Below, piece by piece: positions 11,874-43,113 of a DNA stretch of 64,000 nucleotides. The DNA comes from Nitrospirales bacterium. Its GTDB lineage: Bacteria > Nitrospirota > Nitrospiria > Nitrospirales > UBA8639. Position 1 is the first letter of the stretch, and every line of letters starts with the position of its first letter. The translations under genes and the position numbers were made by a program. The notes under the pieces were generated by a model, which was not told the origin of the DNA, ran no database searches, and saw only the letters and a program-made list of their open reading frames with translations. The stretch lies in the NCBI GenBank assembly GCA_963555755.3, contig OY820905.2, forward strand, positions 1,216,001 through 1,280,000, given 5' to 3'.

Positions 11874-13463
11874 CCCAAAATCCGCGATGGATTTTGTCAA
11901 CAGGACTCCTTTGGCGAAAACCACCTGTTTCATCCACGAGAGAAGTCGCATGGTCAATGTTCTTGCTGGATCCGAGGCCGCCTCCAAGGGATTCCTTGCC
12001 GCACTGGGTGTAACCTGCTCCTTCTGGGCAACCTGCTCCTTTCATGCTTCCTCTCGCGTCTGATTCCTGCCCTGGCTTATGCCTGGGCAGCTTCCGCACA
12101 GCGCGTCCGAATCTCCGCACACATGCCCCACAACCAGTGCTGCACTTTGAGGATCACCGCGCCGGCATGCCGGACCACGTTGCCCGCCCTCTGATACAGC
12201 CGCCAACGCACCGTGCGCCCTTGGCATCGGCTCCAGGCACGGGGGAAAGCCAACAACTTGAACAACACAAAGAGGTTGTAGGCCAACACGCTCATGCGAA
12301 AGAAGACGGCATTGGCCGCGAAGGTCCCACACGGAAGCCGTTCCAGGCCAAAGCCAAGCTTCAGTTCTTTGATGCGATTCTCGCTGGTCTCCCCGCGCTG
12401 GTTATCCCACCGCACCATCTCCTCGGGGGGTCCGTCTCGGTTCGTCGCAAGCAGCGTGTAGCGCTGGCGGGGGGCCTCGGGGGCAAACAAATCCTGTGGC
12501 ACGGGCCGTCGCAACACGATGAGACGAAAGGCGTGCGGGGTCTTCGCCATACAATGCACTGTGTCCGCAAGGTGTCCATCTCGGTAGGGTTGCCACTGGC
12601 ATTCCGGGATAGCTGCAATGGCGGCCTGCACGGCCGCATCCTGCACGCCCCCAATGGCAACCGTCACCTTCTGCTCCGCACACCAGTTGAACCGCTCCAC
12701 TTGGTACGCCGCACTATCTGCCCGCACAGGAGCCATCCGTTTCCCGTTGGGCATCTGGGCCGCACAGGCCTGAGTAAATTCTAGATGGCGGGACGCCGGG
12801 GCCTCATGGCCTTCGCGAAACTCCTCCCCAATCACCAGCCCATTTTCTGCCAGATGTCCCAGCAGCGGCATAGAGCCTCGCTCCCCCTTGTCCGTCCATT
12901 TGGCTGCCTGCTTCTCCGCGACAATCTGCGTGGCATCACGGTCGAGGGTATAGTCCGTAAGCGGCTCCCGCTTCCACGCCCGCCGGATCTGCTGCTGCTT
13001 GACGACGGCTAAGCCTGCCAACCCCTCCTTCTCTCCCATGCGCCGCAGCCACTCTCCCGTCGCATCTGCACTGGGGAGCACGGAGACTCGCAGCACCGCT
13101 CGCAACCCGGCGTCCTCGCGAATCTGCCGCAGGTCCTCCAGCGTCCGGCCCCCGCCATGCAACAGCAACAGTAGGGGCTCGACAAATTGGGCAGGGTGGT
13201 AGCCGCTGCGGCTCCCGGGCGCGGGCAAGGCCGCATCGAGTTGCCCGGGCACATTCATCGCTTGGAGAAACTCCCCGACCAGCGCCAGCCCGCCATGGGC
13301 GGTGAGCTGCTCGTCGGTGGGCTCGAGCTTGAACGGAAGAACGGTTTGTGGCCTCATTCGTTTCACCTCGTTGGTGAGGAGTGGCTAAGTGGATGGGCAC
13401 CCGTATCTTAGTAAATCAACGAGGTTTTTTTATGCCCGAAATAAATCCATCGCGGATCTTGGG
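11874..13463 (-). mobile_element. IS1380-family element, degenerating
   Basis: Terminal inverted repeats cccaaaatccgcgatggattt / aaatccatcgcggatcttggg; no TSD seen. Confidence 0.85.
12077..13366 (-). CDS. IS1380-family transposase with many substitutions in conserved motifs, probably inactive
   Basis: LTAHGGL, LDxDAT, RADSAAY and NQRGETSENRIKELK. Confidence 0.85.
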   Translation of the reverse strand: MKRMRPQTVLPFKLEPTDEQLTAHGGLALVGEFLQAMNVPGQLDAALPAPGSRSGYHPAQFVEPLLLLLHGGGRTLEDLRQIREDAGLRAVLRVSVLPSADATGEWLRRMGEKEGLAGLAVVKQQQIRRAWKREPLTDYTLDRDATQIVAEKQAAKWTDKGERGSMPLLGHLAENGLVIGEEFREGHEAPASRHLEFTQACAAQMPNGKRMAPVRADSAAYQVERFNWCAEQKVTVAIGGVQDAAVQAAIAAIPECQWQPYRDGHLADTVHCMAKTPHAFRLIVLRRPVPQDLFAPEAPRQRYTLLATNRDGPPEEMVRWDNQRGETSENRIKELKLGFGLERLPCGTFAANAVFFRMSVLAYNLFVLFKLLAFPRAWSRCQGRTVRWRLYQRAGNVVRHAGAVILKVQHWLWGMCAEIRTRCAEAAQA

Positions 13464-13716
13464 TTACACTTCCTCCACCCTCTCCCTTGCCATGACTGTC
13501 GGAAAAGTCTCGTCCCGAGAACAGCCTGACTTTTCGGTTAATACAGGCGGTTTTGTCAAAAAATAGTGCTTTCCTTTGGATCTACGAAAAATTTTCCCGG
13601 AATTGGGGTTAGCCATGAGAGTGTTTTGTATCATACAGGGTGCCGTCACCAAACGACGAGTCCCTTTTGTTTCGGAAAAAGGAACCAAAACCATTTCCGC
13701 CTAGGCGCGGCCCTAT

Positions 13717-13838
13717 AGAGAATGATCAAAACGTCCGTCAGCAAGGCCGCAGGCGCTTTGGCGCGCGCAGCGTACAAGTTAGTACGTGAGCACGGCAAAG
13801 GGCCGAGAACGCCGCTGACGAACGTTTTGATCATTCTC
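13717..13838 (-). mobile_element. MITE family C-related short element
   Basis: Terminal inverted repeat agagaatgatcaaaacgt; core gcagcgtac...gtacgtgag. Confidence 0.7.
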
Positions 13839-13920
13839 TTCCGGGTGCCTCCGCCGCGCCCAACGCGAAGACCCACGATCGAGACAGAAAATGAAGGAGC
13901 AACCTTACATAACAATTGAT

Positions 13921-14075
13921 TGTCATTTCGAGCGGAGCGAGAAATTTCCCCTCATTGCCGAACGAGAGATTTCTCCCAAGGGTCGAAATGACAAAGAAGG
14001 GGTGGAAGTGCCAAGCAGTTTGCGAAATGACAGGAGGGAAAGCCTGAATTCCCGATTAAGGATGTCTGGAATGAC
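13921..14075. repeat. Cluster of TGTCATTTCG...CGAAATGACA palindromic repeats plus a family F end
   Basis: Similar to the repeats at 53160-53280 and 54617-54735. Confidence 0.6.
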
Positions 14076-14127
14076 GGTAAGGAAAATTGCTAGGAGCCTG
14101 TCCGAGATTGAAACGCAAGGATCACGT

Positions 14128-14847
14128 TTAGCGCTTGCTCCCCTGTTTACCTTCTCCCATCCACCCCTCATCCGCAAAAGAAACAAATCGGGCATCACCG
14201 ATGATGACGTGGTCGAGTACTTGGATCCCAAGGATATTGCCGGCTTCTTGTAATCGCGCGGTGAGCGTTCGATCTTCGACACTGGGCTTCGGATCGCCAC
14301 TAGGATGATTGTGGAGAAAGATGACGGCAGCGGCAGACTCCCGCACCGCTTCGTTAAAGACTTCGCGTGGATGAACTACACTGGTCGTGAGGCTCCCTTC
14401 GGACACGGTGATGTCTCGAATCACGGCATGCTTGGCATCCAATAAAATGACTTTAAAGACTTCATGCCGAAGATCGCGAAGCAACGGATAATAGTGCTGG
14501 AACACCGATTGACTGTTGGAAATCTTCATGCCTGTGGTGAGCGGTGTGGAAAGCACGCGCTTTCCTAATTCAATCGCGGCCTTGACTTGCGCAGCCTTGG
14601 CCGGCCCAATCCCAGGCACCGCGCAGAGTTCTTCAAGAGAGCGGTTTGCTAATCCCTGTAGCCCTTCAAGATGATGAAGCAGATCGATCGCGACCTGAAC
14701 CGCGGAGGAGTCCTGCCGTCCGACGCGAAGAAGAATCGCGAGTAGTTGTGCATCGGATAAACTTTCTGGACCTTCTTGCAATAAGCGTTCGCGCGGCCGT
14801 TCGGATTTCGGCCAGTTGACGATTCCTTTCCGACTCTGGTTTTTCAC
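14128..14847 (-). CDS. radC: RadC / JAB domain protein
   Basis: ERPRERL, GIGPAKA, HPREVF, HNHPSGD and LDHVII; probable GTG start at 14847. Confidence 0.93.
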   Translation of the reverse strand: MKNQSRKGIVNWPKSERPRERLLQEGPESLSDAQLLAILLRVGRQDSSAVQVAIDLLHHLEGLQGLANRSLEELCAVPGIGPAKAAQVKAAIELGKRVLSTPLTTGMKISNSQSVFQHYYPLLRDLRHEVFKVILLDAKHAVIRDITVSEGSLTTSVVHPREVFNEAVRESAAAVIFLHNHPSGDPKPSVEDRTLTARLQEAGNILGIQVLDHVIIGDARFVSFADEGWMGEGKQGSKR

Positions 14848-15144
14848 GTGGTGCCTCGTATGCTCGGTTTGGGGAATTCGAAATAAAAAATCCCCCTCAC
14901 TCCCTTTTCCAAAGGGGGACAAGGTCATAGGATTTTGGAAAATAACTAGGTTGAAACTAGCTTCACAATCTTCCAAAAAATACCAGAGACGAAAGTCCAT
15001 GTACAAATAGGCTTCAAATAAATTATACTTAAATTATAAACTCGAGCTATTAATACCATTAAACGCACGCGACAGTGCATGCTAATTCTCTTGCTGGTCT
15101 TCGAAATGGTGTGCTAAGGTTTTTTCCCTTGTGGGAATACCTTC

Positions 15145-15735
15145 ATGACGATGCGCGTAGTGGCGGGAACGCAAAAAGGTCGACGCCTCAAGGAACCGAC
15201 GAGTCCTGGACTCCGGCCTACATCGGGACGGGTCAAAGAGGCGCTCTTTTCAATGATCGCAGAACGCCTTCCCAACGCCACCGTGCTAGATCTGTATGCG
15301 GGGACGGGAGCCCTAGGCCTTGAAGCCATAAGTCGAGGAGCGCGGAAAGTGGTCTTTGTGGAAAACCAGCCAGCCTCGATCCAGGTGCTGCGTGAAAATA
15401 TTACTCGCTGTCAATTCACTGCTTGTAGTAGCATTAATCCCCAAGACGTCCAGGTCTATTTGAACACCCACTCTCTACGACAGAATGCAAGCCCGTTCGA
15501 TCTGGTGTTCGCCGATCCACCCTATGAAGTTTCTGATTTGGAACCGCTCCTCAACCAGCTCGATTCCAGTGAAAAAGTGGCGACCAACGGGTTGGTGGTG
15601 ATTGAACATTTTAAAAAAGCCTCACTTCCTTTGAAAGCGGGGCAACTCCGGCAAACTCGGCAATCTCGTTATGGCGATACCATCTTGACCTTTTATCACA
15701 TGGTGCCAACCACGAAAGAAGACACATGCGCATAG
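15145..15735 (+). CDS. rsmD: 16S rRNA m2G966 methyltransferase
   Basis: MRVVAG, RPTSGRVKEALF, LDLYAGTGALGLEA and DPPY. Confidence 0.93.
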   Translation: MTMRVVAGTQKGRRLKEPTSPGLRPTSGRVKEALFSMIAERLPNATVLDLYAGTGALGLEAISRGARKVVFVENQPASIQVLRENITRCQFTACSSINPQDVQVYLNTHSLRQNASPFDLVFADPPYEVSDLEPLLNQLDSSEKVATNGLVVIEHFKKASLPLKAGQLRQTRQSRYGDTILTFYHMVPTTKEDTCA

Positions 15736-16205
15736 GCGTCTACCCCGGCACCTTTGACCCCATCACGCGCGGCCACACCGATATCGTGGCACGCAGCCTG
15801 CACTTGTTCGATCGCCTGATTGTGGCCGTGGCGCCCAACCCTCGGAAAGAACCGTTGCTGTCCATTGCCGATCGAGTGGAGCTCGCGAAAATTGTCACGA
15901 AAGATTTTCCAAATGTGGAAGTGGAATCCTTCAATGGACTCTTGGTGGAGTATGTGCGGAAACGTGGAGCGCATGCGCTTATTCGCGGGTTGCGTGCGCT
16001 GTCGGATTTTGAACATGAATTCCAGATGGCGTTGCTCAACCGAAAGATTGACGAGCAATTGGAAACCGTATTTTTCATGCCAAGCGAAGAGTACTCGTAT
16101 CTGACCTCTAGCATTGTTAAAGAACTGGCGATGTTTGGAGGACCCTTGGAAGATTTTGTTCACCCTGAAGTCGCCGAAAAACTTCGGCAGTGCTATCGCC
16201 AATAG
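15726..16205 (+). CDS. coaD: Pantetheine-phosphate adenylyltransferase
   Basis: YPGTFDPITRGH, RGLRALSDFE and SSIVKE. Confidence 0.97.
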   Translation: MRIGVYPGTFDPITRGHTDIVARSLHLFDRLIVAVAPNPRKEPLLSIADRVELAKIVTKDFPNVEVESFNGLLVEYVRKRGAHALIRGLRALSDFEHEFQMALLNRKIDEQLETVFFMPSEEYSYLTSSIVKELAMFGGPLEDFVHPEVAEKLRQCYRQ

Positions 16206-16210
16206 ACATC

Positions 16211-17404: not shown

Positions 17405-17479
17405 ACCTAGACTTGCCTTGACTAACCAAATTTTGGTGTTATAGAAACATGTAGTAGTGGTAATATTGCAAGGAGGAGA

Positions 17480-17899
17480 ATGACCGTGCCTATTTATGAA
17501 TACCAGTGCGAAACATGTGAACATAAATTTGAAGTGCAGCAAAAATTTTCAGACCCACTCGTCGATGCATGCACAAAATGCGGAAAAAGTGTCCGCAAAC
17601 TCATTTCCGCACCTGGCATTGTGTTTAAAGGAACGGGATGGTACGTGACCGACTACTCGAATAAATTGAAGGACCCGAATGCATCGAAACCCAGCGACTC
17701 ACCCGACGGGAAAAAAGACGGGGGAGGTTCAGCGTCAAAGAGTGATGGGAAAAGTGGCGATTCGAGTTCCTCAACCGCAAAAAGTGAATCGAGCACCCCT
17801 TCGTCGTCATCTTCGGATTCATCATCATCTTCAAGCGCATCAACTTCGACATCAACCTCAACTTCTTCGCCTTCTTCTTCGTCTTCGCCAGGCTCATAA
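17480..17899 (+). CDS. FmdB-family zinc ribbon protein with Ser-rich tail
   Basis: PIYEYQCETC, CTKCG and FKGTGWYVTDY. Confidence 0.9.
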   Translation: MTVPIYEYQCETCEHKFEVQQKFSDPLVDACTKCGKSVRKLISAPGIVFKGTGWYVTDYSNKLKDPNASKPSDSPDGKKDGGGSASKSDGKSGDSSSSTAKSESSTPSSSSSDSSSSSSASTSTSTSTSSPSSSSSPGS

Positions 17900-17911
17900 C
17901 GAACACCAACC

Positions 17912-18580: not shown

Positions 18581-18842
18581 TCCATTCCTCTCGCTCGATC
18601 CACGGTGGAAAAATAGCATGATCACGAAGCCTCACCTCGACTTCCCTGATCCTGTATAATAGGACATGGTCCAGCGTCAATGAAAATTTTTGAGACAACC
18701 TTGACAGCACCACATTCTAGTGAATACCTTCGGGGGTCAATACGGTTCTCTGCTAGATGCACCATGCCTCAGGTGTGAGACCAACCCTACCAATTGGGAT
18801 ACCCAACGTTAATTAATCAGATTGAAGAAGGAGGCCTTTGCC

Positions 18843-19418: not shown

Positions 19419-19485
19419 GGACCAGGTTCCATTGTTTTCATATAGAATTTGGACAATCTGAACGGACATCCCCTCACGCATTCAA

Positions 19486-19869: not shown

Positions 19870-20427
19870 GGCTTAGTCTCCTAGAATCCCCTCATGACTC
19901 TTCACGCCTCCTCCAACTCCGAATCATCGAAACAAGACACATGACCCCAAGGATGGCTAAACCCAACATCGATGCCGCATCACGGAACCACGACGAATGA
20001 ATATGGAGGTCTTCAACTTCAAGCGAATCGGAAGTGGTGAATCGTCCTTTCATTGACACTAGCGCGGCGTGAGGCAACGGATTGGCACCCAACTTGAGGT
20101 ATTCATTCGACACCGTTCTAATAACATCCCCCGAGTCCCTCTTGATATACGAAACCCGATCGAACTCGACCACTCGCCCCACGCGTGCCTCAGTTTCACG
20201 TAAGGTCTTCATAAAATGATTATCCGCTTGCTCGGCTCCACTCATGACTGCCACCGGAAACACAAAATACCCGGCCAGGACTAGAACGGACAGTACACTG
20301 TTTCTCGCGGAAAACCCAATTGGAATGAGAGGCTGTTCAACAGCCGATCGCCACGCAATCACCACGTAGACTAAACCAAGTGCCGAAAGTCCATACGTCA
20401 CAATGCTTTCCGGCCAATACCACCCTA

Positions 20428-21619
20428 GTGTAGTGTCCTAATTTGATTGTATATTATCAAGAGTTGAGCGCGCACGATTCACTTTTTTTAAAATTTCTTC
20501 CGCGGACTTTGTCCACACAAATGGTTTCGGTTTTATATTCTGTTTCTCAATAGACTCAACAATCTTTTGCTCCAGCTCAGCGACCGAAGTACACACCCCT
20601 CGTTTCAGTTGCTTCTCTGTGAGTACACCAAAAAATCGCTCCACCAGATTCAGCCATGAGGAACTGGTTGGGGTGAAATGGAGAAAGACCCGTGGATTCC
20701 GTTTTAACCAGTTCCGGACTTTTTCGTGCTTATGTGTGGAATAATTATCAACGATAATATGCAGGTCTTTCTCCTTGTCTGTTTGACCTTCAACCGTCTT
20801 GATGAATTTGAGAAACTCTTTATGGGTATGCTTCTGGTAACATTCACCGGTTACCCTGCCGGTGGCAACTTCGAGTGCGGCAAACAGGGTACTGGTCCCG
20901 TTTCGTTTATAATCATGCGTGACGGTTCCACAGCGGCCTTTCTTGAATGGCAGCCCAGGTTGAGTACGATCTAAGGCCTGGATGGAGGTCTTTTCATCAA
21001 TGCAAAGGACTATCGCATTGTCTGGGGGGTTCAAATATAATCCCACGACGTCACACAACTTCTCTTCAAACTGTGGATCATTGCTGACCGTAAAGGTCTT
21101 CACTCAATGAGGTTTTAAGCCAACCGACTGCCACACACGATGCACAAAGCTGTGCGTCGTATTCAGTGCGTCCGCCAGTGTCCGGGTGGACCAATGCGTC
21201 GCGTTGGCTGGTTTCGCCTGCGTCGTGGTGGCAATAATCTTTTTCCGAAGTCTGGCCTGCTTTCGGGTGTCTTGCCCTCCATGATTGGCCCCTCTGGGTT
21301 TATCTTTACTGATTGCGATCAGGCCACCCTCGACAAATCGGTTTCTCCACTTGCCGACTTTGTTAGGTGGGATCTTGAGCCTTTGGGCGATCACTTTGTT
21401 CTCCAGGCCTGCGGCCGACAACAGGACGATGTGGGAGCGTTCGGCCAAGCGGACGGAGACGGATCGGCTTCGGGTGTTTTTCGTCAATGTCTTCTTGTCG
21501 AAAGCGGATAATGTAATTGTTGTTGCTACTCTCATAACGGCAGACTCCTCCTGTTCAAGGACAGCTGCAGTATAACAAGAATACAACATATAATATACAG
21601 TTTATTTAGGACACTACAC
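20428..21619 (-). mobile_element. IS630-family element with TA duplication
   Basis: Terminal inverted repeats gtgtagtgtcctaa / ttaggacactacac; TA at 20426-20427 and 21620-21621. Confidence 0.92.
20438..21535 (-). pseudogene. IS630 transposase with an internal in-frame TGA at 21104-21106
   Basis: [20 protein letters not shown] and [18 protein letters not shown]. Confidence 0.88.
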
Positions 21620-23173: not shown

Positions 23174-23314
23174 GGGCACCTCTAAAAACCAGGCATTTTT
23201 TGTGAGGGCAAGGAAGCCGCGCGCGGAAAACCGGAGTGTATGGGCGAATACATGAGGATTTGAGCACGCGGCTGACGCCGCCATCACGGAAAAGGACGGT
23301 TTTTAGAGGTGCCC
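23174..23314 (+). mobile_element. MITE family B (141 bp, RPE-like), TSD TAAA
   Basis: Terminal inverted repeat gggcacctctaaaaacc; four near-identical copies in the window. Confidence 0.9.
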
Positions 23315-24822: not shown

Positions 24823-24853
24823 AAACACCCGAAATAGCTTGCTGCAGTATTAA

Positions 24854-24994
24854 GGGCACCTCTACAAACCAGGCATTTTTTGTGAGGGCAAGGAAGCCGC
24901 GCGCGGAAAACCGGAGTGTAGGGGCGAATACATGAGGATTTGAGCACGCGGCTGACGCCGCCATCACGGAAAAGGACGGTTTTTAGAGGTGCCC
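24854..24994 (+). mobile_element. MITE family B, TSD TTAA
   Basis: Two substitutions relative to the other copies. Confidence 0.9.
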
Positions 24995-26056
24995 TTAAGG
25001 GAACTTAAGGGAATATGGACGTCTAATTTCTGTGGTGGCCGCCACCTTAGTGGATACGCGAACACCCCCTTTTCTTTTCAGGTATTTTCCCACCGGGTAC
25101 AAGCCAGGTTAAAGATTGTGACAGCACCCCTATGGGTGATTCATTATCTAGGAATCAGCTTTTCTAAAACACTATGAACCCGCCCGTTGGCACGCCATCT
25201 GGGTAGCAAAACAACGAACTCGATCACCGACTGAGTGAGCACCCAAAATTCCCAAGAGGCCATTTCATGGTCCAAAGCGGCATGGAACCTTAGTCGTGTG
25301 GTATCCTGGGATGGGCGGCCTGTTGGACATGAAAGCCGTCGTTCTTTCCAATGATACCCTCAAAGTTCAGTTTGATTTCGACCACCCGAAAGATTGCCGA
25401 ATGGCCTATGCGACGTTGGTTGAAAAACCTCAATTTGTGATCGGGACACTAGACGCCTTTGGAGAACGGACATTTTTCTACCTACCTCACAATAAAAAGC
25501 ACCCTAACCCTCGTTAGATCGCCACTGACGAAAGGAAGGCCCACACGGACCATTTCTTTTCATGCAATCCCAATTTTCTCGGATTGTTGGCCAGACTTTC
25601 CTCCCTCCAAGAGATTTATTTTCCTTCTGAGTTTTTCAGGACACTTCCAATAGAATTGAGACTCCGCTATGGGCTGGTGACACCCTGTACACAATATTAT
25701 ATTTTCTGGAACTCATTCTGGTGGTTTTTCAAAATTTTCCTCAATAGAGATAATTGGCCCTATAAATAAGTATAAAGTACATCTAGAAGATACGCGTTAA
25801 AGGCAGTAGGCTTGAGAGAATCATCACCTTGAATTTTTCAAGGAGGCTTAGCATCTTGTAAATTTTTATTTTGTAACGTGGCAAACCTCTTTATTCATAG
25901 ATAGGGTCAATGGTGCAATAGGTATTACGCCCTTATTCGACCATTTCATAAGGTGCATCATTTCGCCATGTTTTTTGAAATAGGGCCAAATAAATAAACC
26001 TAGCTTCATCAACATCTGTACTAAGAAATTTATTCTTTCAATTGGAATGAGTTAGG

Positions 26057-28942: not shown

Positions 28943-28949
28943 GCAAACC

Positions 28950-30083: not shown

Positions 30084-30126
30084 TTAGTGGTGATGAGATA
30101 ATTTTTTATTTTGCCAGGTGTGCTCA

Positions 30127-32242: not shown

Positions 32243-33267
32243 TGAAACACCGTACGGACTTCCTCCGAATTTGGGACAATCCTCAGACAGAAGAAGTGGG
32301 AGACTCCGTCGAAGAATTTCTTCATCTTCTTGGCGGACCAACCTGGATCGACATTCCCGGCAAGGATCCATCACGGTCTCGCGCCATTGTCACATTGCTT
32401 CACGGCAATGAACCTTCAGGGATTCGGGCCATTCATCAATGGCTTCGCATAGGCCACACCCCATTCGTCAATGTCGTCTGTTTCATTGGAGCAGTTGAGG
32501 CTGCCCTCGCCCCTCCTGGTTTTGCCTTTCGGACATTGCCAGGCTGCCAAGACCTGAACCGGTGCTGGCAAGAACCCTATGATAGTGTCGAGGGGCATAT
32601 TGCCCAAGCAGTCCTCCAACGATTCCAGCGCTTCAACCTGGAAGCCCTCATTGACCTTCACAACACCTCAGGACACAGTCCCTGCTACGGCATTACCACC
32701 CAAATGGGCGACAAACAGAAAGCACTCACCGCGTTGTTTTCCAGTCAACTGGTCGTCACCGATTTACGATTAGGGTCAATCATGGAAGCCACCGAGTTTG
32801 TGACTCCCACTATTGCGGTAGAATGCGGTGGAAATCACGACCAACAATCTGATCGCATGGCCTTTGACGGATTGACTCGATTTACCCAAACAGACTCTCT
32901 CTTTCCTCCAGGGAAGGAATATCCAGACATCTCGGTCTTCGAGCATCCGATTCGCGTTGAACTTCGAGAAGGCGCCACCGTGGCCTATGCATCTTCACCA
33001 GTAGAGGAAGCAGATTGTACACTCAGATTTGATGCCGACAATTTTAATTTTGATCTACGGCATCCAGGAGAACAGATTGGATGGGCCGGGCCAAACCAAC
33101 TGGATGTCTTCTTGGCACGAGACGCAAAAGGCCACAATCGAACCAAGGAACTCTTTACCGTGCTCAACGGCCAACTGCATATCACCCAACCGGGAAGAAT
33201 CCTCATGATGACCACCGACCCCATTATGGCCACAAGCGATTGCCTCTTTTACGGGCCTGTAAGATAA
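32242..33267 (+). CDS. Succinylglutamate desuccinylase/aspartoacylase (M14) family protein; last codons supplied by the IS256 end
   Basis: LHGNEPSG, DLNR, IDLHNT and VECGG; translationally coupled to the GCS2 gene. Confidence 0.85.
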   Translation: MKHRTDFLRIWDNPQTEEVGDSVEEFLHLLGGPTWIDIPGKDPSRSRAIVTLLHGNEPSGIRAIHQWLRIGHTPFVNVVCFIGAVEAALAPPGFAFRTLPGCQDLNRCWQEPYDSVEGHIAQAVLQRFQRFNLEALIDLHNTSGHSPCYGITTQMGDKQKALTALFSSQLVVTDLRLGSIMEATEFVTPTIAVECGGNHDQQSDRMAFDGLTRFTQTDSLFPPGKEYPDISVFEHPIRVELREGATVAYASSPVEEADCTLRFDADNFNFDLRHPGEQIGWAGPNQLDVFLARDAKGHNRTKELFTVLNGQLHITQPGRILMMTTDPIMATSDCLFYGPVR

Positions 33268-34582
33268 ACTGTGTAACTGGTATCATGACGGATCCATTGA
33301 ATAAGGAGGACTGATGACCAGAGCCAAGACCCCAAGCAAAACCGATGTGCTGTTAGATGAGCTATTGGAAGGGTGTGCGTCACCCGAAGACATATTCGGC
33401 AAACATGGGCTGGTGAAGCGTCTCACGAAACGGCTCGTAGAACGCGCCCTGCGGGCAGAACTGACCGAGCATTTGGGCTATGCCCCTCATGCCCCTGAGG
33501 GCCGTGGATCCGGCAATGCCCGCAATGGGAGCACGTCGAAAACGGTGCAAACGGCCCACGGGGATCTCCCGCTCCAGGTGCCCCGTGATCGTCAAGGCCG
33601 CTTTGAGCCGCTGTTGGTGCCCAAACGCCAACGGCGCTTGGAAGGGTTTGATGAGAAGGTCCTGGCGTTGTATGCCCGAGGGCTGACGACTCGCGACATT
33701 CAAGGGCATCTGGAAGAACTCTATGACGTGGAGGTGTCGCCCACGCTCATTTCGGCCATCACTGATGCGGTGTTGGAGGATGTGCGCATCTGGCAGAGTC
33801 GGCCCTTAGATGCTGTGTATCCGATTCTGTACTTCGATTGTCTGTTTGTGAAGTCTCGGCAGGAGGGCGTCGTCAAGAATAAAGCCGTGTATGTGGCCTT
33901 AGGGGTGAATCTACAGGGCGAGAAAGAACTCCTGGGGCTCTGGATCAGTGAGACCGAAGGGGCCAAGTTCTGGCTGTCGATCTTCACCGAACTCCAGCAG
34001 CGCGGGGTCCGGGATTGTTTTGTGGCTTGCGTCGATGGGCTGGGGGGCTTGCCAGAAGCCTTGGAGACGGTGTTCCCACACACCCAGGTGCAACTGTGCA
34101 TTGTGCATAAGGTACGGCAATCCTTGCGGTATGTGGTGTGGAAAGAGCGACGAGCCGTGGCGCGGGATCTGCGAGCCCTCTATGGCGCCGCGACGTTGTC
34201 GGAGGCGGAAAGCGCGTTGGAGACATTTGCCGCCAGGTGGGATGCGAAATATCCGACGATCAGTGCGACGTGGCGACGGCATTGGAGTCGGCTCACGATC
34301 TTTTTTGATTATCCCCCAGAAATCAGGAAAGCCATCTATACCACCAATGCGATCGAATCGGTGAATTTTTCGTTACGCAAAGTCCTGAAAAGTCGGGGAG
34401 CCTTTCCGACAGATGAATCAATTCTGAAGGTGCTGTATTTAGGGATGCAGCGGATTGCGAAGAAATGGACGATGCCCATTCCGCACTGGAAGCGGGCTCT
34501 CAACCAATTCGCCATGCTCTTAGGAGATCGAGTGCCAACAATCTAGCCCACAATTCAGTTACACAGTTAACTTGACAAGCCC
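33253..34582 (+). mobile_element. IS256-family element
   Basis: 26-bp imperfect terminal inverted repeats (gggcctgtaagataaactgtgtaact / agttacacagttaacttgacaagccc); flanks not duplicated. Confidence 0.92.
33314..34546 (+). CDS. IS256 transposase, apparently intact
   Basis: VPRDRQGRFEP, YPILYFD, CVDGL, QLCIVH and YTTNAIES. Confidence 0.95.
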   Translation: MTRAKTPSKTDVLLDELLEGCASPEDIFGKHGLVKRLTKRLVERALRAELTEHLGYAPHAPEGRGSGNARNGSTSKTVQTAHGDLPLQVPRDRQGRFEPLLVPKRQRRLEGFDEKVLALYARGLTTRDIQGHLEELYDVEVSPTLISAITDAVLEDVRIWQSRPLDAVYPILYFDCLFVKSRQEGVVKNKAVYVALGVNLQGEKELLGLWISETEGAKFWLSIFTELQQRGVRDCFVACVDGLGGLPEALETVFPHTQVQLCIVHKVRQSLRYVVWKERRAVARDLRALYGAATLSEAESALETFAARWDAKYPTISATWRRHWSRLTIFFDYPPEIRKAIYTTNAIESVNFSLRKVLKSRGAFPTDESILKVLYLGMQRIAKKWTMPIPHWKRALNQFAMLLGDRVPTI

Positions 34583-35094
34583 CTCGTCCCTGCCTCCCAT
34601 GTTGATCACAGCCTACAGCCAGTAGGGCTCCTTTGCTCCACAGGCATTACCCTGCTTCCTCGCTCCTACGAGCCCCTCCGCCACCCTCTCGTCTTCGACT
34701 CACTTCCCAGAGAGCTGGTTATAGAGCCGATCTTCCTCCAGGGATTTCTCCCTGGGACGAGGAGGGCTTCTCCCGTTGCGTCGTCTGTCCTTGCTCCCGT
34801 GCTGTCGCTCTCACCCCGCCGGAGTGGTCAGGCGTCTCAGCCCTATTTCGCCTGCCCATGCCGTCTTCGTCCTACGGTCAGGGACTCGACCTCCGAGGTT
34901 CCGTACTTTCGAGGCTACCTCTGCGTTCACTTGCGTTACGGCCCGGGAACTCGCTCACCATCCTCTACGATGGCTTTGTCGATGGGCTTCAGCGTCTCGG
35001 TTTCTCTCCACGCTGCCATCCAAGCTACAGGGCTCAGGCTCTTACCCTGGTGGGCTTGCTTCCCACTGAACAGACTCACCTTACCTGGACACAC
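34583..35094 (-). ncRNA. Group II intron 2: 5' part (DI-DIII, start of DIV), truncated by IS256
   Basis: GTGTG 5' end at 35094; ggccgtaacgcaagtgaac motif shared with intron 1; EBS1-like stem-loop gtcc-ctgaccgta-ggac; DIII-like ggcggaggggctcgtagg...ggagcaaagg. Confidence 0.8.
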
Positions 35095-35114
35095 AACCGT
35101 GCATGCGGTTTTCC

Positions 35115-36975
35115 CAAGCCGTTCACTTAATCTGTTGACACAAACCAGCAAACAGACATAAACAGCGCTTGTTTGCTGGCTTTCTTGTTTTGGATCATGC
35201 AGAAAAAATCTTCCGCAACTTCTACGCTGAAGCACCCTCGGATACCGCTCGAGTACGGTGGCTTCCAGATCAACCACTGCAAGTCTCCGGTCTGCTCGAA
35301 CTACGGCGTTCCGCCAGAACACACATCGGTGCGTGGAAAAAATAGCTACACTCTGGATTCACGCAACCAAGGCATTTCATCCTGTATCTGCACGTCCTGC
35401 GGCGAAGGATTCCCTCTCAAGAGCAACCTCGGCATCGCAGAAGAAGTCGAGCGCATGTCGGCCTACCTGTCGCCTCGTGAGGTGGCGTTCTGCCGTAACG
35501 ATGCCTGTACCAATCATACCGGTCAGGTGCCCGTAGGTACCGCTGGGGCATATGCCTCGTTCGGCAAGACCGCGATTGACAGCCCCCGCTGGCGCTGTAG
35601 CGTCTGCGGTACGACGTTCTCACAGAACACCAAGGCCACCGCCCGGCAGCGGGAACATCACAAGAACAAGACCATTTTCAAACTGCTGGTCAACAAGATG
35701 CCCGTGCGCCGAATCATCGAAGTCGCCGACATCCACCCCAAGACCTTCTACCACCGCCTCGACTTCCTCCATCGCCAGTGCCAATCATTTGCCGCCCACC
35801 GCGAGCACGCCCTATCCACCCTCCCCATTCGGCGACTGTACCTCGGCGTGGACCGGCAGGACGACCTTGTGAACTGGATGGTTCGCAAGGACAAGCGCAA
35901 CATTCAGCTATCGGCCATTGCATCAGTGGACAACGAACACGGTTACGGCTTCGGTGTCCACCTTCACTTCGACTCTTCTCTGGACAGCGAAGCTGTCCAA
36001 GCCGAAGTCGAGAAGAGCGGCGACCTTGGCATGCCCTATCCGCATCGTCGCGTTGCACGTCTGTGGCTCACTGCAGACCATGAGCGAGCCAGTGCCAAAT
36101 CCCTACGCACTTCGCGGCGCAAACCCGGACTGCCAACGCAGATCGATGAAGCCTATGCCGCAGCATTGATGCGTGACGATATCGAAAGCCCTGATGCGCC
36201 GTCGCCCGTAGAACGACTTCCTGAATACGGGATGCCAACCCATGGCGAGTACACCATGTCTGGGCATTTTTTCTTCCTCAAACGCCTGCTGGGCAATGTC
36301 CAAAAGTGGCGCTTCTTTATCGACCAAGACCCTGGACTGCGAGCCGCGTGCCTATCGGCGTTCCACGACGAGATCCGAGGCCGCACGGCGGATGCCTTCT
36401 CTGTTCGCATCACCAAAGATCTGACGGTGGACGAAAAGCGTCAAAAATACAACGAAGCGACGATGCTGTTCGTGCACGCAGAGCTCGCGCACCCAAAGAT
36501 GAAGCCGCAGGAGGTCAAGTTGCTGCTGATCAAAGAGCGTCTGGCCTGTATGACGCCGCACGGGAAGTGGCAGGATCGGTGGCTTGACCATCCTTTCCCG
36601 ACCATGAGCGAGCCAGAGAAGACAGTGGCCTACCTCACCAATCTGGGCGACTACGACGAAGAACACAAAGCTTGGCTCTACAACAAAGCGAGCGTGCATG
36701 GTGTCGATTCGTTCTTCAACCAAGTGCGTCGACGGCTCTCCCTGCTGGAGCGTCCGATCCATTCCAAATCCAACAATGGTCGGATATGGAACGGATATTC
36801 TCCATATAACCCGGGTAATGTTGCAAAAGTACTCGACATCATGCGCACGGTGCATAACTACATCCTGCCCGGCAAGGATGGCAAGACGCCAGCTGTGCGA
36901 CTTGGATTGGCCCAAGCGCCGCTGGACTACGAAGACATTATTTATTTTGCATCAACAGATTAAGTGAACGGCTTG
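35115..36975 (+). mobile_element. IS element (IS1/IS1595-related, family uncertain) inserted in intron domain V
   Basis: 24-bp perfect terminal inverted repeat caagccgttcacttaatctgttga; 9-bp TSD cggttttcc (an 11-bp reading is also possible). Confidence 0.9.
35197..36963 (+). CDS. Transposase with two Zn-ribbon modules
   Basis: CKSPVC, CTSC, CRNDAC and CSVC; HTH region; C-terminal KTPAVRLGL; fills the element. Confidence 0.8.
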   Translation: MQKKSSATSTLKHPRIPLEYGGFQINHCKSPVCSNYGVPPEHTSVRGKNSYTLDSRNQGISSCICTSCGEGFPLKSNLGIAEEVERMSAYLSPREVAFCRNDACTNHTGQVPVGTAGAYASFGKTAIDSPRWRCSVCGTTFSQNTKATARQREHHKNKTIFKLLVNKMPVRRIIEVADIHPKTFYHRLDFLHRQCQSFAAHREHALSTLPIRRLYLGVDRQDDLVNWMVRKDKRNIQLSAIASVDNEHGYGFGVHLHFDSSLDSEAVQAEVEKSGDLGMPYPHRRVARLWLTADHERASAKSLRTSRRKPGLPTQIDEAYAAALMRDDIESPDAPSPVERLPEYGMPTHGEYTMSGHFFFLKRLLGNVQKWRFFIDQDPGLRAACLSAFHDEIRGRTADAFSVRITKDLTVDEKRQKYNEATMLFVHAELAHPKMKPQEVKLLLIKERLACMTPHGKWQDRWLDHPFPTMSEPEKTVAYLTNLGDYDEEHKAWLYNKASVHGVDSFFNQVRRRLSLLERPIHSKSNNGRIWNGYSPYNPGNVAKVLDIMRTVHNYILPGKDGKTPAVRLGLAQAPLDYEDIIYFASTD

Positions 36976-37007
36976 CGGTTTTCCCGCACACGGCTTTCCG
37001 ATGTTCT

Positions 37008-38342
37008 TCATGTCAAGGCATGCGCCGAGCGCCAGCCCGCTACCGTAGGAACCTTATAGAGCCCGTAACGCTCATACAGATCGGCCTGCGGGAAACGACG
37101 TAAGCCGGTTCCCCTGTCCTTGATCTTGTGGCGTTTCATCAAGTGGGTTCGCAACCGGTCTTCCGCGTGAGTTTTGACCTTGCTCATCGTCACACTTGAG
37201 TTCCGATAGTGGAAGTAGTTCACCCAGCCGCGGAGGCTGCGGTTGACCGTTCCCACGAGGTCGCTCAAGGCAATGGCGGTCAGGTCCCGTTGTGTGAGTT
37301 CCGTCAGTCTCGCCTTGATCTTCTTCAACGAGGTGTCTGCCGGTCGAACATTCGGGTACGGCTTTCCAGTCGCCCCTCGACTCATCTGCAGCGTAAAACC
37401 CAGGAAGGTGAAACTCGCTTCGGTCGCGTCCACGATGTGGGTCTTGGCCTCGTTGAGACTCAGGCCCAGTTGGTCCAGTACGTGGCGCACGACCTTTAGC
37501 GGTTCCTCTACATCTTTTCGACACATCACGACAAAGTCATCTGCGTAGCGCACCAAGTGCGCGTGCAATGTATCTTTGCCGTGTCGCCGTTGCCAGGTTC
37601 GATCCAGAATGTGCCGGTAGCAGTTAGCCCGCAGCGGGGAAATCACTCCGCCTTGCGGAGTCCCCGTGCGGTTGGCTTTCCCGCCGCCTACACTTTTCCG
37701 GGTGCCGTCCGCGTCGTTGCCAATAACCGGGGCTTTGAGCCATTGCTTGATGAGGCGCAGGATGCCCCCATCCACAATGCGCTCGGCAACCACGGCCAGG
37801 AGTTTGGCATGCGGGATACTGTCAAAGTACTTCGACAGGTCGGCGTCGATGACTGGGGTGTAGCCGGCCCAGAGCGTCTTGGCAATGTCGTCCACCGCAT
37901 CATGGGCCGATCGCTTGGGCCGGAATCCGTACGAATTCGCACAGAAGTCGGCTTCAAAGATCGGCTCGATGATGAGCTTGACGGCCATTTGCGCCACTCG
38001 GTCTCGGATCGTCGGGATCCCCAGCGGACGCAGCCTACCGTCCGCTTTGAGTCTCATGACGCGCCGCACCGGTTGGGCTCGGTAGGTCTTGGCTTGCAGA
38101 TCACGGGCCAATTCCCTCAGAAACGTGTCTACCCCGATTCCACTCTCTATGGCCTTGAAGCTGATCCCATCACTCCCGGGGCTGCCTCGATTGGCTCGGA
38201 CAAGCCGCCAGGCATGATTGAGGATATCCTCCTGGCTGATCTTGTCGTAGAGGGCGTACAAGCGATAGGCCGGTTCTTGCTTGGCCTTGGCATACAGCTT
38301 CCTCGGCAGCGTCCTGATCGTCTCCGGGGTGGTTAGCGCCAT
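37008..38342 (-). CDS. ltrA: Group II intron reverse transcriptase/maturase without an endonuclease domain, decaying
   Basis: RPLGIPTIRDR, SYGFRP, DADLSKYFD, GTPQGGVISP, RYADD, FLGF and LRGWVNYF. Confidence 0.93.
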   Translation of the reverse strand: MALTTPETIRTLPRKLYAKAKQEPAYRLYALYDKISQEDILNHAWRLVRANRGSPGSDGISFKAIESGIGVDTFLRELARDLQAKTYRAQPVRRVMRLKADGRLRPLGIPTIRDRVAQMAVKLIIEPIFEADFCANSYGFRPKRSAHDAVDDIAKTLWAGYTPVIDADLSKYFDSIPHAKLLAVVAERIVDGGILRLIKQWLKAPVIGNDADGTRKSVGGGKANRTGTPQGGVISPLRANCYRHILDRTWQRRHGKDTLHAHLVRYADDFVVMCRKDVEEPLKVVRHVLDQLGLSLNEAKTHIVDATEASFTFLGFTLQMSRGATGKPYPNVRPADTSLKKIKARLTELTQRDLTAIALSDLVGTVNRSLRGWVNYFHYRNSSVTMSKVKTHAEDRLRTHLMKRHKIKDRGTGLRRFPQADLYERYGLYKVPTVAGWRSAHALT

Positions 38343-38941
38343 GGCAATCCCCTGATCCTCCGCTCTTCGGTTGCATGAACACAGCAGGGTTCCTTCCCTC
38401 GACCGGGGTTGTGTGGTCCCTCGGCCTCACGCGGTACGATGAACCCCTCCGACTCCCGTTCCGGGCCGCTGTGATTTCGTGGCCTTCTACACAGTGGTCG
38501 GTGGCCTCCCCACCCCCACAACGGGTCTCCAGCACTGGGCGATACGTCTTCCAGAACATGCCGTCCTTGCTACCCCGGGAGTCGAGGGATGCCACTTCCG
38601 TTATTCCAGCACCCTTCCACCGGCCTTCCCCTTCTGACCACAGGGTCGGCGTCTCCACTTTCATGTACGAGGCTACTCATCGGTTCACTTGCGTGACGGC
38701 CTGCTCTTTTGCTGTGGGGAAACTGACGACCCCGTGTGACCACGACGCCGCTTCCTCATACTACCAAGGTGTACGGACAATTCCTTGGACGGGACTTTAA
38801 CCCGCTAGACATACTGCTGTTACTGCGAACGGTCAGACTCGAATTACATCTCCACGTTTTATCATAAGGCGAAGCCAACCAAAGGGGAAAAGGGGGCGCA
38901 ACTGATACCTGTTCATTCTGCAAACTACCAAACGAAAGAAG

Positions 38942-38996
38942 AATATTGGTGCCCCCGAGACGATTTGAACGTCCGGCCTACGGTTTAGGAAACCGT
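38942..38996 (-). repeat. att site: 55-bp duplicate of the tRNA-Arg 3' half
   Basis: Identical to 43927-43981. Confidence 0.92.
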
Positions 38997-39358
38997 AACC
39001 AGCTCAATCTCCCCTTCGACGAAACACCGCCCCAGAAGCGGAAACCAGTTGATTGATCAATGAGTTAGGTCTGCCAACGAAGTTGCACTGAGTTGCGTAG
39101 GGTGTGAGGGGTGTGAGACCTGGCGGTTACAAAAAAGGTTACACTTTAATACGGTGGCCCTTCACCTAGGCCCGCCATCGCGGTCTTGTTTATGAACACG
39201 GTCACTCGATGAAATTCAGCTGTACTGGCAGCCTTCCATAACCCTCGAAATTCGCTCCCGCAAAAAGTCGATCCCCACAATTGTTCCGTTGGGGTGCCAA
39301 TGTCCGGACCCCTCATAGCACACTTGCTATTTTTCCAAATTGGCAATAGTAGGTAAGA

Positions 39359-39517
39359 TTACGTATAATCGTCCTGCCACGTTGCGCGAAACAGGCTGGA
39401 CGGTTCGCACGAAATTGTTTGTGGTGGAGCACGGGTGGGCACACTCAGGTGGGCGAGAATCTTGACGATCACGGCGGGATCTTCAATGGCCGCGATGAGG
39501 GTCAAGGGGCCTACACA
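39359..39517 (-). pseudogene. C-terminal remnant of an IS91/ISCR-family transposase
   Basis: Reads CVGPLTLIAAIEDPAVIVKILAHLSVPTRAPP, the typical IS91-family C-terminus. Confidence 0.7.
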
Positions 39518-39925
39518 GGGGAGAAACTAAATAAGTCAATACTCATGCCTGACCCTACTTCCAAGGGCCAGGTCTCTTAGGCCACTAGCCGTAGCCAAAA
39601 CTTGGACCATTCTTTATGAGAAAATCCGCTACACTAGGCCCCCATTTAGAAGGGAGGATGTGCCATCTTTTGACAGTCCCACGGAAAGCTGCTTCGGGTT
39701 ATTAAATTTTCAGCAAGGAAAACCGATAAGAAAACCGGAAACTAGTTGAGTCAGAGTATAGGTGGAGGGTCATTATAAAACGATGGGTTCAGCAATGATG
39801 TAAAGGATCTCTATCAAGGTAGTAATTCGAAAATCACTGGTCTTCCGTTGATTTTGCTGGGAGAGCCAGGTTGCTCTCAGTTGTAAGGGAAATCCTAAGC
39901 GAATGAATAGTATAGGTGTCTTTTG

Positions 39926-41194
39926 ATGCAAAAGATAGAACGAGCAGTGTTGATTTTTATTGGGGGCATGCTGATTGCCCTTACTCTCATGTGGGATGTA
40001 ATGGAAGGCAACCCATTTAATATAACGCCAATACAAATGGCACCTGCTATTCTAGGTGTCTTTATCGCTGTTTTGGGCATTCGGCCAAATAGAGTCATTC
40101 TAACAAATATTTATGTTTTATCTGCTTTGATAGTTATTGGACTTTTTGCATTGGAACTAGTACTACCCAAAAGCTATTCAATGCAGAATCTAACTTTAGA
40201 AAAAGAATTTGACCATCAATTAGACAAATTTAATAAAACAACAATTTTCCCAAAAAATATAAAAGAACTAGATGAAATAGGCATTAAGAATGAATTGGGG
40301 CTTGTATACAAAAAAACCTGGAACTCTAACATTATAGAAAAATCTGGCTACAGAATTTTAATCCTTGGAGATTCTTTCATTATGGGTGATGGTATGCCAT
40401 GGGGGACAACATGGGATGGAATGGTGATTAACTACCTGAACCAGATGACACCTGAAGTTGAATTATTTTCATTTGGTAGAAATGGGCTGGCTACATTAGA
40501 AGAGTTCGATTTCTTAATGGAGAATATTGAAATTTTGCAACCAGATTTAGTGGTTTTTTCTTTTGTGTCAAATGATCCTCATTTTAAACAAAATGAAGAA
40601 ACGAAGATGAAAAAAAGAATTCTATTTATTAATTATTACGCGAAGGCGACAGGCTATGTCTATCAATTTAAGAGCTTAAATTTTCTTTACAATTCGATAA
40701 ACAACTTGTTCGTCTCATTTTATCCATACTATGGATATGTTGGGTGGGTAAAAAGGCTATATGAGCCCAGAAATTTTTCCAAATATGAAGAACTGCTCCA
40801 AAAGATCAAAAGTGCTTCTTTAGATAGAAAATTTAAATTGTTATTTTATTTGTTTCCAAGCAGAAGTTATCAATCAAATCCTCTTAAAAGTTATTTAACA
40901 AAAGTCGAAAACGCTTTAAAGAAAAGTACAATTGCCTACCTGAATCCAAATGAAAATTTTGAATCAATGACCCACACATTCTCCAAGGACCACCTATCAG
41001 CAAACCCAGGAGATGGGCATCCTGGGGTGGTAACAAATTTTTTAGCAACTCAGTATTTCATTTCTCATTTATGTGATGAGGGGTTAATGTCTGAAGGGTG
41101 TGAAGAAATCAAGCCCAAAGTAATTGAAAGTCTCCACGTAGGACTTCATGCAAGCGAGGCAAATGAGGAAGATACAAGCCTAAGTTATCGATAA
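39926..41194 (+). CDS. Membrane-anchored SGNH hydrolase-like protein, AT-rich
   Basis: N-terminal TM helices; LILGDSF, FGRNG, SND and DGHP. Confidence 0.82.
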   Translation: MQKIERAVLIFIGGMLIALTLMWDVMEGNPFNITPIQMAPAILGVFIAVLGIRPNRVILTNIYVLSALIVIGLFALELVLPKSYSMQNLTLEKEFDHQLDKFNKTTIFPKNIKELDEIGIKNELGLVYKKTWNSNIIEKSGYRILILGDSFIMGDGMPWGTTWDGMVINYLNQMTPEVELFSFGRNGLATLEEFDFLMENIEILQPDLVVFSFVSNDPHFKQNEETKMKKRILFINYYAKATGYVYQFKSLNFLYNSINNLFVSFYPYYGYVGWVKRLYEPRNFSKYEELLQKIKSASLDRKFKLLFYLFPSRSYQSNPLKSYLTKVENALKKSTIAYLNPNENFESMTHTFSKDHLSANPGDGHPGVVTNFLATQYFISHLCDEGLMSEGCEEIKPKVIESLHVGLHASEANEEDTSLSYR

Positions 41195-41211
41195 TATAGT
41201 CACACAAGAGC

Positions 41212-41243
41212 GAGCCTCATCGTTGCGACGGTGGGGCTCTTTG
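41212..41243 (+). terminator. Probable intrinsic terminator
   Basis: gagcctcatcgt-tgcg-acggtggggctc followed by ttt, just after the SGNH stop. Confidence 0.55.
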
Positions 41244-41529
41244 TTGTCCTTAACTAATCAATCTCCGCACTCACGATAGATCCTTCGTTTAATATACTTT
41301 ACCTACCCAATTCACCTAAGTTTACTTCTTTACACCTTTCAATATAAACTCAACGATAACTGTCGAGCTGCGATGAGATGGTGGCAACTTGAACGAGGAG
41401 ACCCACCACCATCACCGAGACGACATCCTCAGCACACCGAGGGAGTGGTCTTAGGCAGTCACGCGAAAGGAAGATCCATATGGACATCTTCATCATTAAA
41501 GGCGCAGGGCCTTTCAGAGAGGTAGTACA

Positions 41530-41675
41530 ATGAGTCACACTAGACCTGAGTATTCCCGAATCATAGCGACCCGTGCTTTGATTTCTGTAGCCGCCATAGC
41601 AGGAATGCTCATTCTGGGGATGGGGTTCAGTGAACACGCTCATTCCGGAAGTCTTGAACCAGCTGCGCCTCCCGC
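41530..41675 (+). pseudogene. 5' stub of a secreted protein truncated by IS256
   Basis: GAGG RBS; MSHTRPEYSRIIATRALISVAAIAGMLILGMGFSEHAHSGSLEPAAPP (signal peptide), then the IS end. Confidence 0.6.
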
Positions 41676-43113
41676 GAGTCAAGCCCAAAGTTAGTTGAAA
41701 TTCTCCACGGCTCCGAGGTTCATATTAGGCAACCTTCTTCATCGAGGTCTTCCCAATGTTTAACTCTTGTTACCGTGCCTCACGCAAGCGTGGCAAGTGC
41801 CGATAGCCCTTGACTCTGCGGAGCCGTGGCTCGATATCCAGCAACGCCGCGGCCAACCACCGCTGCCGCTGATTCGAGTTCGTCCAGCGATCCACCTTGG
41901 CACACCGCTCTTCCACCAAGGCATTGATGGATTCCAGACAATTCGTCGTTTTGAAGGACAGACCTACCAGAGCAAACACCCCCAGCCGAGGCAACGTCAC
42001 CGTGTCCTCCAGACCTTCCGCCAAACTCCGAGCCGCCGATTGGTTGCGGTCCTCCAGTTCCGTCTGCAGGTGCGTGAGTGCGGCTCTCGCTTCCGCATAG
42101 GTCGGGCCTTGATACGCCCGTTGAAGCCGGCGTCGCCACGTGGCCTGGTCGCCTTTCGGTACATGGCTGACGACATTCTCCCGTTTGTGCCACTGGCACC
42201 GCTGCCCCAGGGCTGAGTGGCCAAAGGCGTGGCGCACGGCCGCTCGCAGGCCTTTGCCCCCATCAATGATGACCACCAACCCCTGGGAACTGGTGAGGCC
42301 GCGCTCCCCCAACTCCTGCAGAAAGGGCGTGAGGCCTTGCTCATTTTCCGTTCCCGTTTCCACAAACCCCAGGACGTGTTTCTCGCCCGTGAGCGTGATC
42401 CCGATCGCCACGACCATCGTCATGTCGGCAACGGTCTTGCCATCGAGAAAGATGGCGACGATGTCTCGCTCACGGCGGTCGCGTTCCTGCAGTCCCTTGA
42501 GTGGCTTGGCGCTGGCATCCGTAAAACTCCGCGACACCGTCGCGCTTGACAAGCCAATCGCCCCAGGGACTGCGGCCGCCGCCGCCTCATAGTTCCGGCA
42601 GGAAATCCCATACAGCACGCGTTTGAGCCGGACCTCATCCAGCTTACCTGTCCCACGGAGGTGGGGCAGGCGCTGTAAGGCCATTTCGCCACCCCCCACG
42701 TACTGAACGCGAGGAATCGGCAACGGATGCCGTTGCCCCGCCAGCCGGACACTCCCGGGATTACTCCCATGCCGGCGGCCAGGCAGCCGAGCCCCCTTCC
42801 GTTCATCCCGGGCCCCGGCCACCGCACACACTTCGTCCTCTAAGAGCTCCTGAATCCGCATCAGACCCAAGGGGATGAGGGCCTGAATACATTCCACCTT
42901 GCTGTTCACATCGAAGGCCTCATACTGCTCGGGCCGAATCACCCGCACGGCCCCCAAGCGGCGCGTCTTCTTGCTTCTCGTTGTCGTTTTCGCAATACTG
43001 CGCATGAAGTGGCTCCTTTTTTTCTGTTGCTGAGATGTCGATTCTTCGTCGAACGCCATCTCACCACAGGTGGGGGAGCCGCTTCAAATTTCAACTAACA
43101 TTAGCACACACTC
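41676..43113 (-). mobile_element. IS256-family element (second type), degenerating
   Basis: gagt-N10-gttagttgaaatt at both ends; flanks not duplicated. Confidence 0.85.
41770..43005 (-). pseudogene. IS256 transposase with many motif substitutions and a probable premature stop near the 3' end
   Basis: FLDGKT, IIDGGKGL, QRCQWHK and TTNCLES; EAR*QELNIG... Confidence 0.8.

Follow-up and report, generated by a model that had tools for sequence, protein, structure and literature searches.

We analysed a window of 64,000 nucleotides from the genome of a Nitrospirales bacterium (contig OY820905.2, positions 1,216,001 to 1,280,000), in which insertion sequences (IS), group II intron sequences and a miniature inverted-repeat transposable element (MITE) occur together (Table 1). 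A preliminary description of this DNA had noted that the decaying elements among them repeatedly carry A:T→C:G transversions. The genome holding the window (G000; 4.62 Mb, 99% complete) contains approximately 860 kb of repeated DNA, and searches gave 23 IS256 and 63 IS4-type matches, versus none of either and few other IS matches in the complete congener G003. Within the genomes searched, this IS load appears to be specific to the lineage. Near-identical relatives of G000 were found in marine sediment runs. A second contig of G000 (C2, 14 kb) was dismissed as a possible plasmid source, since it repeats C1:4141231-4153174 at 99.98% identity, fused to an IS copy; it probably represents an insertion variant within the population.

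Table 1. Mobile elements of the window (positions of the window; ORF, open reading frame; RT, reverse transcriptase)
Element	Position	Strand	Remarks
IS1380-family element	11874..13469	-	ORF 12077-13366 still open; Pfam-confirmed
Single-copy IS630	20424..21619	-	premature stop TTA→TGA at 21104-21106; Pfam-confirmed
MITE-B copy	24846..24999		C at 24865 a subfamily variant, G at 24921 rare
Near-pristine IS256	33252..34583	+	ORF 33314-34546; Pfam-confirmed
End fragment of a group II intron-like family, 534 bp	34583..35116		13 other copies at 95% identity or more
Four-copy element with 596-aa ORF	35097..37000	+	ORF 35173-36963; no Pfam match
Group II intron	36971..38846	-	RT-maturase ORF 37008-38342; Pfam-confirmed
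Decayed IS256-family copy	41675..43114	-	ORF 41770-43059; Pfam-confirmed

Several of these elements carry the signature. Of the 48 non-synonymous differences that separate the IS1380 element from its active family, 32 are A:T→C:G, and the ORF contains no stops despite all 48. When the element was polarised together with its split sibling, 15 of 18 private changes fell into this class. The IS630, whose insertion site is empty in contigs of two conspecific strains, shows 5 of 9 among its unambiguous changes at conserved codons, and the group II intron 8 of 12 among outgroup-rooted private changes. Two decayed genomic relatives of the near-pristine IS256 gave 26 of 38. The IS256 at 41.7 kb is one of three 99% siblings that have inactivating-looking changes in common, and 10 of the 21 private changes of this trio were A:T→C:G. 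The signature was weak in the 596-aa element (2/9 private changes) and amounted to 1/4 in the intron end fragment.

Several of the elements lie in composite structures. Window positions 33252-38846 form a pile-up of the IS256, the intron end fragment, the 596-aa element and the second intron, of which the unit 34583-36945 recurs at C1:1023793. The decayed IS256 lies in a 5-kb island (38942-44008), located at a tRNA-Arg(CCT) gene and bounded by direct repeats of 55 bp, together with a tyrosine integrase (43120-43926) and a low-GC SGNH-like gene. Internally deleted IS1380 derivatives that keep both ends (locus L241 and its G000 orthologue, G000:C1:2426863-2427737) and a short fragment (L108) were detected as well; such derivatives and fragments are found across G000 and the relatives G005 and G006.

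We located all 18 cited peptide motifs at the positions given for them. As to the direction of change, 18 of the 22 cited codons polarise as A:T→C:G, 17 of them against other genomic copies and the IS630 stop against 21 relatives from other genomes. The remaining four do not: PGSDG (AGT) is common to the 86-95% copies, with AAT in distant copies; FTFLGF (ACC) is present in the 95% sibling too, with GAC in the 86% copies; and TMSGH and DAFSV are common to all four copies of the 596-aa element. Many changes also occur in sibling copies at other sites (4/6 for the 41.7-kb IS256, at least 2/4 for IS1380) and thus arose before those copies duplicated, so that damaged elements were copied afterwards. 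Both A:T→C:G differences claimed for the MITE-B copy exist, of which the one at 24865 is a subfamily variant (41/124 aligned copies) and only the T→G at 24921 is rare (3/125). The 33.3-kb IS256, described as pristine, is nearly so, with 2 sites differing from its twin.

The bases themselves were checked against contigs of same-strain runs. Runs X15 and X17, which belong to differently coded organisms and different studies, contain the same strain, without differences over multi-kb contigs (window 11000-29600). Same-strain contigs from both studies carry the window bases wherever they cover them: no mismatch occurs in 14065-22953 (X15; in X17 as far as 22597) or in 23293-24877, and one contig set is also identical over 11874-12345. 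This verification spans the three IS630 sites, position 24865 and 11874-12345; the RT, 596-aa and 41.7-kb IS256 sites lie outside it. The runs also include a related IS630 at low depth, which differs at 45 of 510 bases. A metagenome pattern scan for conspecific strains returned 2 loci, both from relatives at about 93% rather than strains.

The excess extends to mobile coding elements throughout the genome. Of 61 multi-copy ORF families, we retained 31 with the appearance of genuine mobile genes and excluded non-mobile repeats as well as antisense shadow ORFs; some loci, few in number, are counted in two families. Among the 453 private non-synonymous changes in 287 transposase or RT copies, 182 were A:T→C:G, compared to 90 G:C→A:T, 89 G:C→T:A, 47 G:C→C:G, 30 A:T→G:C and 15 A:T→T:A. 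A:T→C:G was the top or tied-top class in 14 of the 19 families with at least six changes. The excess spans IS256, IS1380, IS630 and group II introns, among other families of long coding elements, and further affected elements are presumably IS30-, IS91-, IS110- and IS6-like. Both strands are affected (A>C 107, T>G 75 on the coding strand). At synonymous sites of the same copies, 50 of 478 private changes belonged to this class (27% normalised), a less skewed set that includes divergence between active lineages. Selection for inactivation was rejected as an explanation since synonymous sites are affected at least as often as non-synonymous ones (3.5 versus 1.6 A:T→C:G per kb). Non-coding DNA near transposases showed 43/221 (21% normalised) versus 185/651 (34%) in coding DNA.

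Outgroup rooting sharpened this picture. In four rooted sets (the IS1380 pair, the IS256 trio, the RT trio and the two decayed IS256 copies), 65 of 107 changes were A:T→C:G, besides 26 G:C→A:T, 8 G:C→C:G, 5 G:C→T:A, 3 A:T→G:C and no A:T→T:A; the resulting share of 61% leans upwards, since three of the four sets were chosen because the preliminary description had flagged them. The two decayed IS256 copies alone carry about 23 A:T→C:G versus 2.7 G:C→A:T per kb. Among unpolarised nearest-neighbour pairs, A↔C/T↔G made up 43-48% across the whole identity range (96 to >99.5%). The spectrum is heterogeneous between copies (P=0.012), some being dominated by G:C→A:T, and the A:T→C:G share falls to 19/65 in decaying copies of families with at least six copies. 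Families of 30-45 copies are nearly untouched, but they are also young. Siblings at separate chromosomal sites each go on gaining private changes. For comparison, one survey of 84 clades found transitions to be more frequent than transversions in every clade (PMC10625568).

We then compared the elements with other DNA of the same chromosome. The core control comprised 73.7 kb aligned between G000, G005 (94.6% identity to G000) and the outgroup G006 (90.6%), both of them incomplete and used in part. On the G000 branch, A:T→C:G made up 43/405 fourfold, 48/242 non-synonymous, 10/70 intergenic and 6/45 orthologous-repeat changes, and mobile copies differed from the fourfold (Fisher's exact test: P=6e-24), intergenic (P=1e-5) and non-synonymous changes of the core (P=3e-8). 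Relaxed genes (29-36% A↔C/T↔G) and recently exchanged core genes were ordinary, the latter (31 of 224, with the youngest G005 alleles) showing A↔C/T↔G at 22/117 for fourfold and 65/220 for non-synonymous sites. A latent-age model of 227 genes fitted a constant recent fourfold excess of about 1, and at most about 7, per kb of A/T. Among 260 mobile copies, 10 exceed 12.9 per kb of A/T and three reach 29-35. MITEs stayed at 17-22% (normalised) in every frequency class, shared variants included, with 4.9 A:T→C:G versus 11.3 G:C→A:T per kb. Flanks within 2.5 kb of 24 heavily affected copies showed 13.5-14.1% against a background of 11.3%, and 2/40 within 1 kb; coverage near these copies is thin. 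A screen for non-mobile pseudogenes among 696 aligned G005/G006 ORFs returned alignment artefacts for the most part, leaving no set fit for use as a control. By argument we also dismissed GC-biased fixation in the core, as it would lift A:T→C:G and A:T→G:C together. Fourfold divergence between G000 and G005 ranged from <4% to >16% between core genes and was steady near 20-24% to G006, which suggests gene flow between the G000 and G005 lineages.

Local context contributed little. Trinucleotide rates were flat, so that A:T→C:G is largely context-independent, with AAAT as the one weak context (15 observed versus 3.1 expected, of 262 events; surviving correction for 1592 tests); it was absent from core changes. 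A T-then-G context was found as often as expected (76 versus 74.2). The m6A motif context that the preliminary description suggested testing for was not borne out: changes were not enriched at GATC (5 observed versus 7.2 expected), GANTC (1 versus 4.8) or CATG (6 versus 4.9). Replichores did not differ (177 versus 196), nor did isolated copies (32/81) from those in IS-dense regions (95/212). Our results demonstrate a local, largely context-free A:T→C:G excess that is confined to long mobile coding elements. The signature first noted is real and resembles the class caused by MutT loss.

The repair genes named in the preliminary description were looked for. G000 encodes a MutT with an open 135-aa ORF (TIGR00586, 99.7 bits versus a cut-off of 97.9); judged by this match, mutT is intact. 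Matches occur in 5 of 7 genomes of the genus, 3 of them above the cut-off, and the ORF is open in those 5. A MutY-like gene of 252 aa matches the N-terminal part of the model only and is directly followed by a separate intact MutT (L001:1471-2649; G000:C1 ~1134240-1135414); its handling of A:8-oxoG could bear on the spectrum. mutM, as well as mutS, mutL and recA, was seen by short motifs only. Within the window, a 620-aa protein (55326-57188) has MutS domain V as its sole match and is MutS-related; a tandem array of a 7-bp unit lies at 47879-48046, with an inverted-orientation relative near 60035-60081. DinB of G000 scores above its NCBIfam cut-off. A second, non-canonical DinB-like gene, below all cut-offs, adjoins a second Pol III alpha, and the two form a probable imuB-dnaE2 pair. 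No Piwi or Argonaute match was found in the 99% complete genome.

When eight IS copies from G002, G005 and G006 were compared with the family consensus of G000, 46 of 137 non-synonymous differences were A:T→C:G and 24 were of the reverse class; IS copies of congeners thus share the leaning seen in G000. The IS630 family is also found in distant taxa, at 71-83% nucleotide identity, but its members there were ordinary: a count at conserved codons among the closest 21 of 80, with four near-identical rows entered once, gave 24/116 (21%) versus 5/9 in the window copy (P=0.03).

The cause is not a simple genome-wide mutator. The proposal of a lineage-wide mutT-like spectrum in unselected DNA finds little support, given an intact mutT and ordinary fourfold, intergenic, relaxed-gene, recently exchanged core and MITE DNA. 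The alternative proposal, a process that mutates repeated or mobile DNA, fits in its bias to mobile DNA, but not all repeated or mobile DNA is involved: the high-copy MITEs are spared, and the single-copy IS630 is affected. We tentatively favour, with a probability of roughly 0.45, a local process in which DinB or ImuB-DnaE2 re-synthesises element DNA and inserts 8-oxo-dGTP opposite A. Short-patch synthesis by one of these polymerases would take place repeatedly on element DNA, set off when a transposase cuts in trans, when gaps are filled or when copies recombine. The error-prone polymerase would place 8-oxo-dGTP opposite adenine, and the A:8-oxoG pair would become fixed as C:G through replication or MutY. 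Copies already mutated continue to be duplicated, so that changes would accumulate over rounds. The low context dependence fits 8-oxo-dGTP: A:T→C:G arises from its insertion opposite A (PMC3556519), mutT loss yields A:T→C:G without context (PMC10625568), DinB has been shown to make this insertion when assayed in vitro (PMC3901139), and mutagenic break repair is driven by 8-oxo-dG from the nucleotide pool (PMC5542668).

Several observations weigh against re-synthesis. Changes show no gradient towards element ends, no clustering (gaps of 30 nt or less: 32% observed versus 30% expected) and no strand coordination inside copies (P=0.14); single synthesis events are therefore not visible. Neither the lack of clustering nor the sparing of MITEs is explained by the model, and elements of very different transposition chemistry are affected alike while MITEs, which are also mobilised, are spared. 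In E. coli, mutagenic break repair spreads over ~100 kb (PMC5542668), whereas flanks are ordinary here, and in mutT E. coli most A→C changes are made by Pol III and not Pol IV (PMC3556519). In addition, A:T→C:G leads the transversions in MITEs and core as well. Conspecific runs gave 116/403 and 167/491 A↔C/T↔G (29% and 34%, unpolarised, over a mostly core stretch at window 11000-29600) versus 23-27% against G005. The sole orthologous IS remnant shared with G005 shows a mild excess (8/25) and diverges no more than its flank, where changes in the G000 direction number 10 versus 3. Taken together, the conspecific values, the leading transversion and the mild remnant point to a weak global A:T→C:G tendency that would coexist with the strong local one.

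Alternatively, the copies could record passage through mutT-like mutator lineages or donor hosts. Core alleles from those lineages, along with embedded MITEs, would since have been purged or exchanged through recombination, while IS copies stayed or arrived by transposition. Such a history would account for rooted spectra that are near pure in some copies (15/18 and 26/38) and heterogeneous between them, for the many changes common to siblings, and for elements that travel, as the IS630 family in distant taxa indicates. We nevertheless consider it somewhat unlikely: mutT is present and open in most genomes of the genus, the closest IS630 relatives in other taxa are ordinary, flanks of heavily affected copies are near background as far as their thin coverage goes, and siblings at separate sites each keep gaining private changes. 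A shift of the whole lineage to an oxidative, A:T→C:G-rich spectrum, recent enough to be visible first in young unselected IS copies, would agree with the leading transversion in MITEs and core, the slightly raised values of the conspecific runs, the 10 versus 3 changes beside the shared remnant and the excess of up to ~7 per kb that the latent-age model allows. Copies at 17-35 per kb exceed that ceiling, recently exchanged core and relaxed genes are ordinary, and congeners' IS copies lean the same way. As sole cause this shift is largely refuted, and we regard it as very improbable overall.

It is also conceivable that the host has a dedicated defence that detects DNA bearing a transposase or RT and inactivates it by mutating adenines, as a counterpart of fungal repeat-induced point mutation (RIP) with other chemistry. 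The changes are sharply confined to long mobile coding elements, in different families and in G000, G002, G005 and G006 alike; this speaks for it, as does the weak AAAT context. This context accounts for just 15 of 262 events, however, and neither a candidate enzyme (no Piwi match) nor GATC or GANTC enrichment was found; families of 30-45 copies are nearly untouched, the density of changes is low and the IS1380 ORF of the window is still open. Such a defence therefore seems quite unlikely. That a prokaryotic RIP analogue with new chemistry riddles transposase and RT DNA with A:T→C:G across the genus is, as a broader claim, an unlikely one, and for the RIP-like process originally suggested we obtained no evidence of a dedicated enzyme. 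Finally, errors of repeat assembly or consensus polarisation could mimic the signature. Rooting may go wrong in small families, the consensus count has an inflated number of G:C→T:A changes (89/453), unlike the rooted sets (5/107), and read verification leaves out the RT and 41.7-kb sites. Against this stand the full agreement of same-strain contigs, from two studies, across the IS630 and at 24865, changes common to sibling copies, unpolarised pairs at 43-48% at every identity level and the conserved-codon count, in which the closest IS630 relatives differ from the window copy. An artefact is scarcely credible.

Fungal RIP makes C→T changes in a dinucleotide context and needs duplicated DNA. 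As in RIP, mutations fall far more on mobile and repeated DNA than on unique genes; in contrast to RIP, the change here is A→C, a single-copy IS is affected and high-copy MITEs are spared. A duplication or length threshold as trigger would match the short MITEs being spared, while the single-copy IS630 is affected and high-copy families, though clean, are young. In diversity-generating retroelements (DGRs), adenines on one strand of a short variable repeat are replaced by any base. They resemble our case in targeting adenines in bacteria. In a comparison of patterns, no search aimed at a DGR cassette having been made, they differ in that A:T→C:G stands here at 65, with 3 A:T→G:C and 0 A:T→T:A, on both strands and along whole elements. 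MutT-deficient mutators of E. coli and P. aeruginosa share the A:T→C:G class, largely independent of context and strand (PMC3556519, PMC10625568); here mutT is apparently intact and the excess is confined to mobile coding elements, not genome-wide. Mutagenic break repair by DinB in E. coli (PMC5542668) is alike in its local error-prone synthesis linked to 8-oxo-dG of the nucleotide pool, a likeness to our proposed mechanism, and DinB is present here. As described there, its clusters span ~100 kb, while the excess reported here ends at the element, is unclustered and built up over evolutionary time. In the open-access literature, we found no description of IS-restricted A:T→C:G mutagenesis.

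The signature is thus real and surprising: its class is MutT-like, its target RIP-like and its chemistry that of neither RIP nor DGRs. Bacterial mutation spectra are usually taken as a genome-wide property, yet here one class of loci has a different, GC-increasing and transversion-dominated spectrum within the same chromosome. If this is true, IS pseudogenes would be no neutral clock for their host and local mutagenesis would help to retire mobile elements, possibly as part of an unrecognised bacterial anti-transposon mutagenic system.

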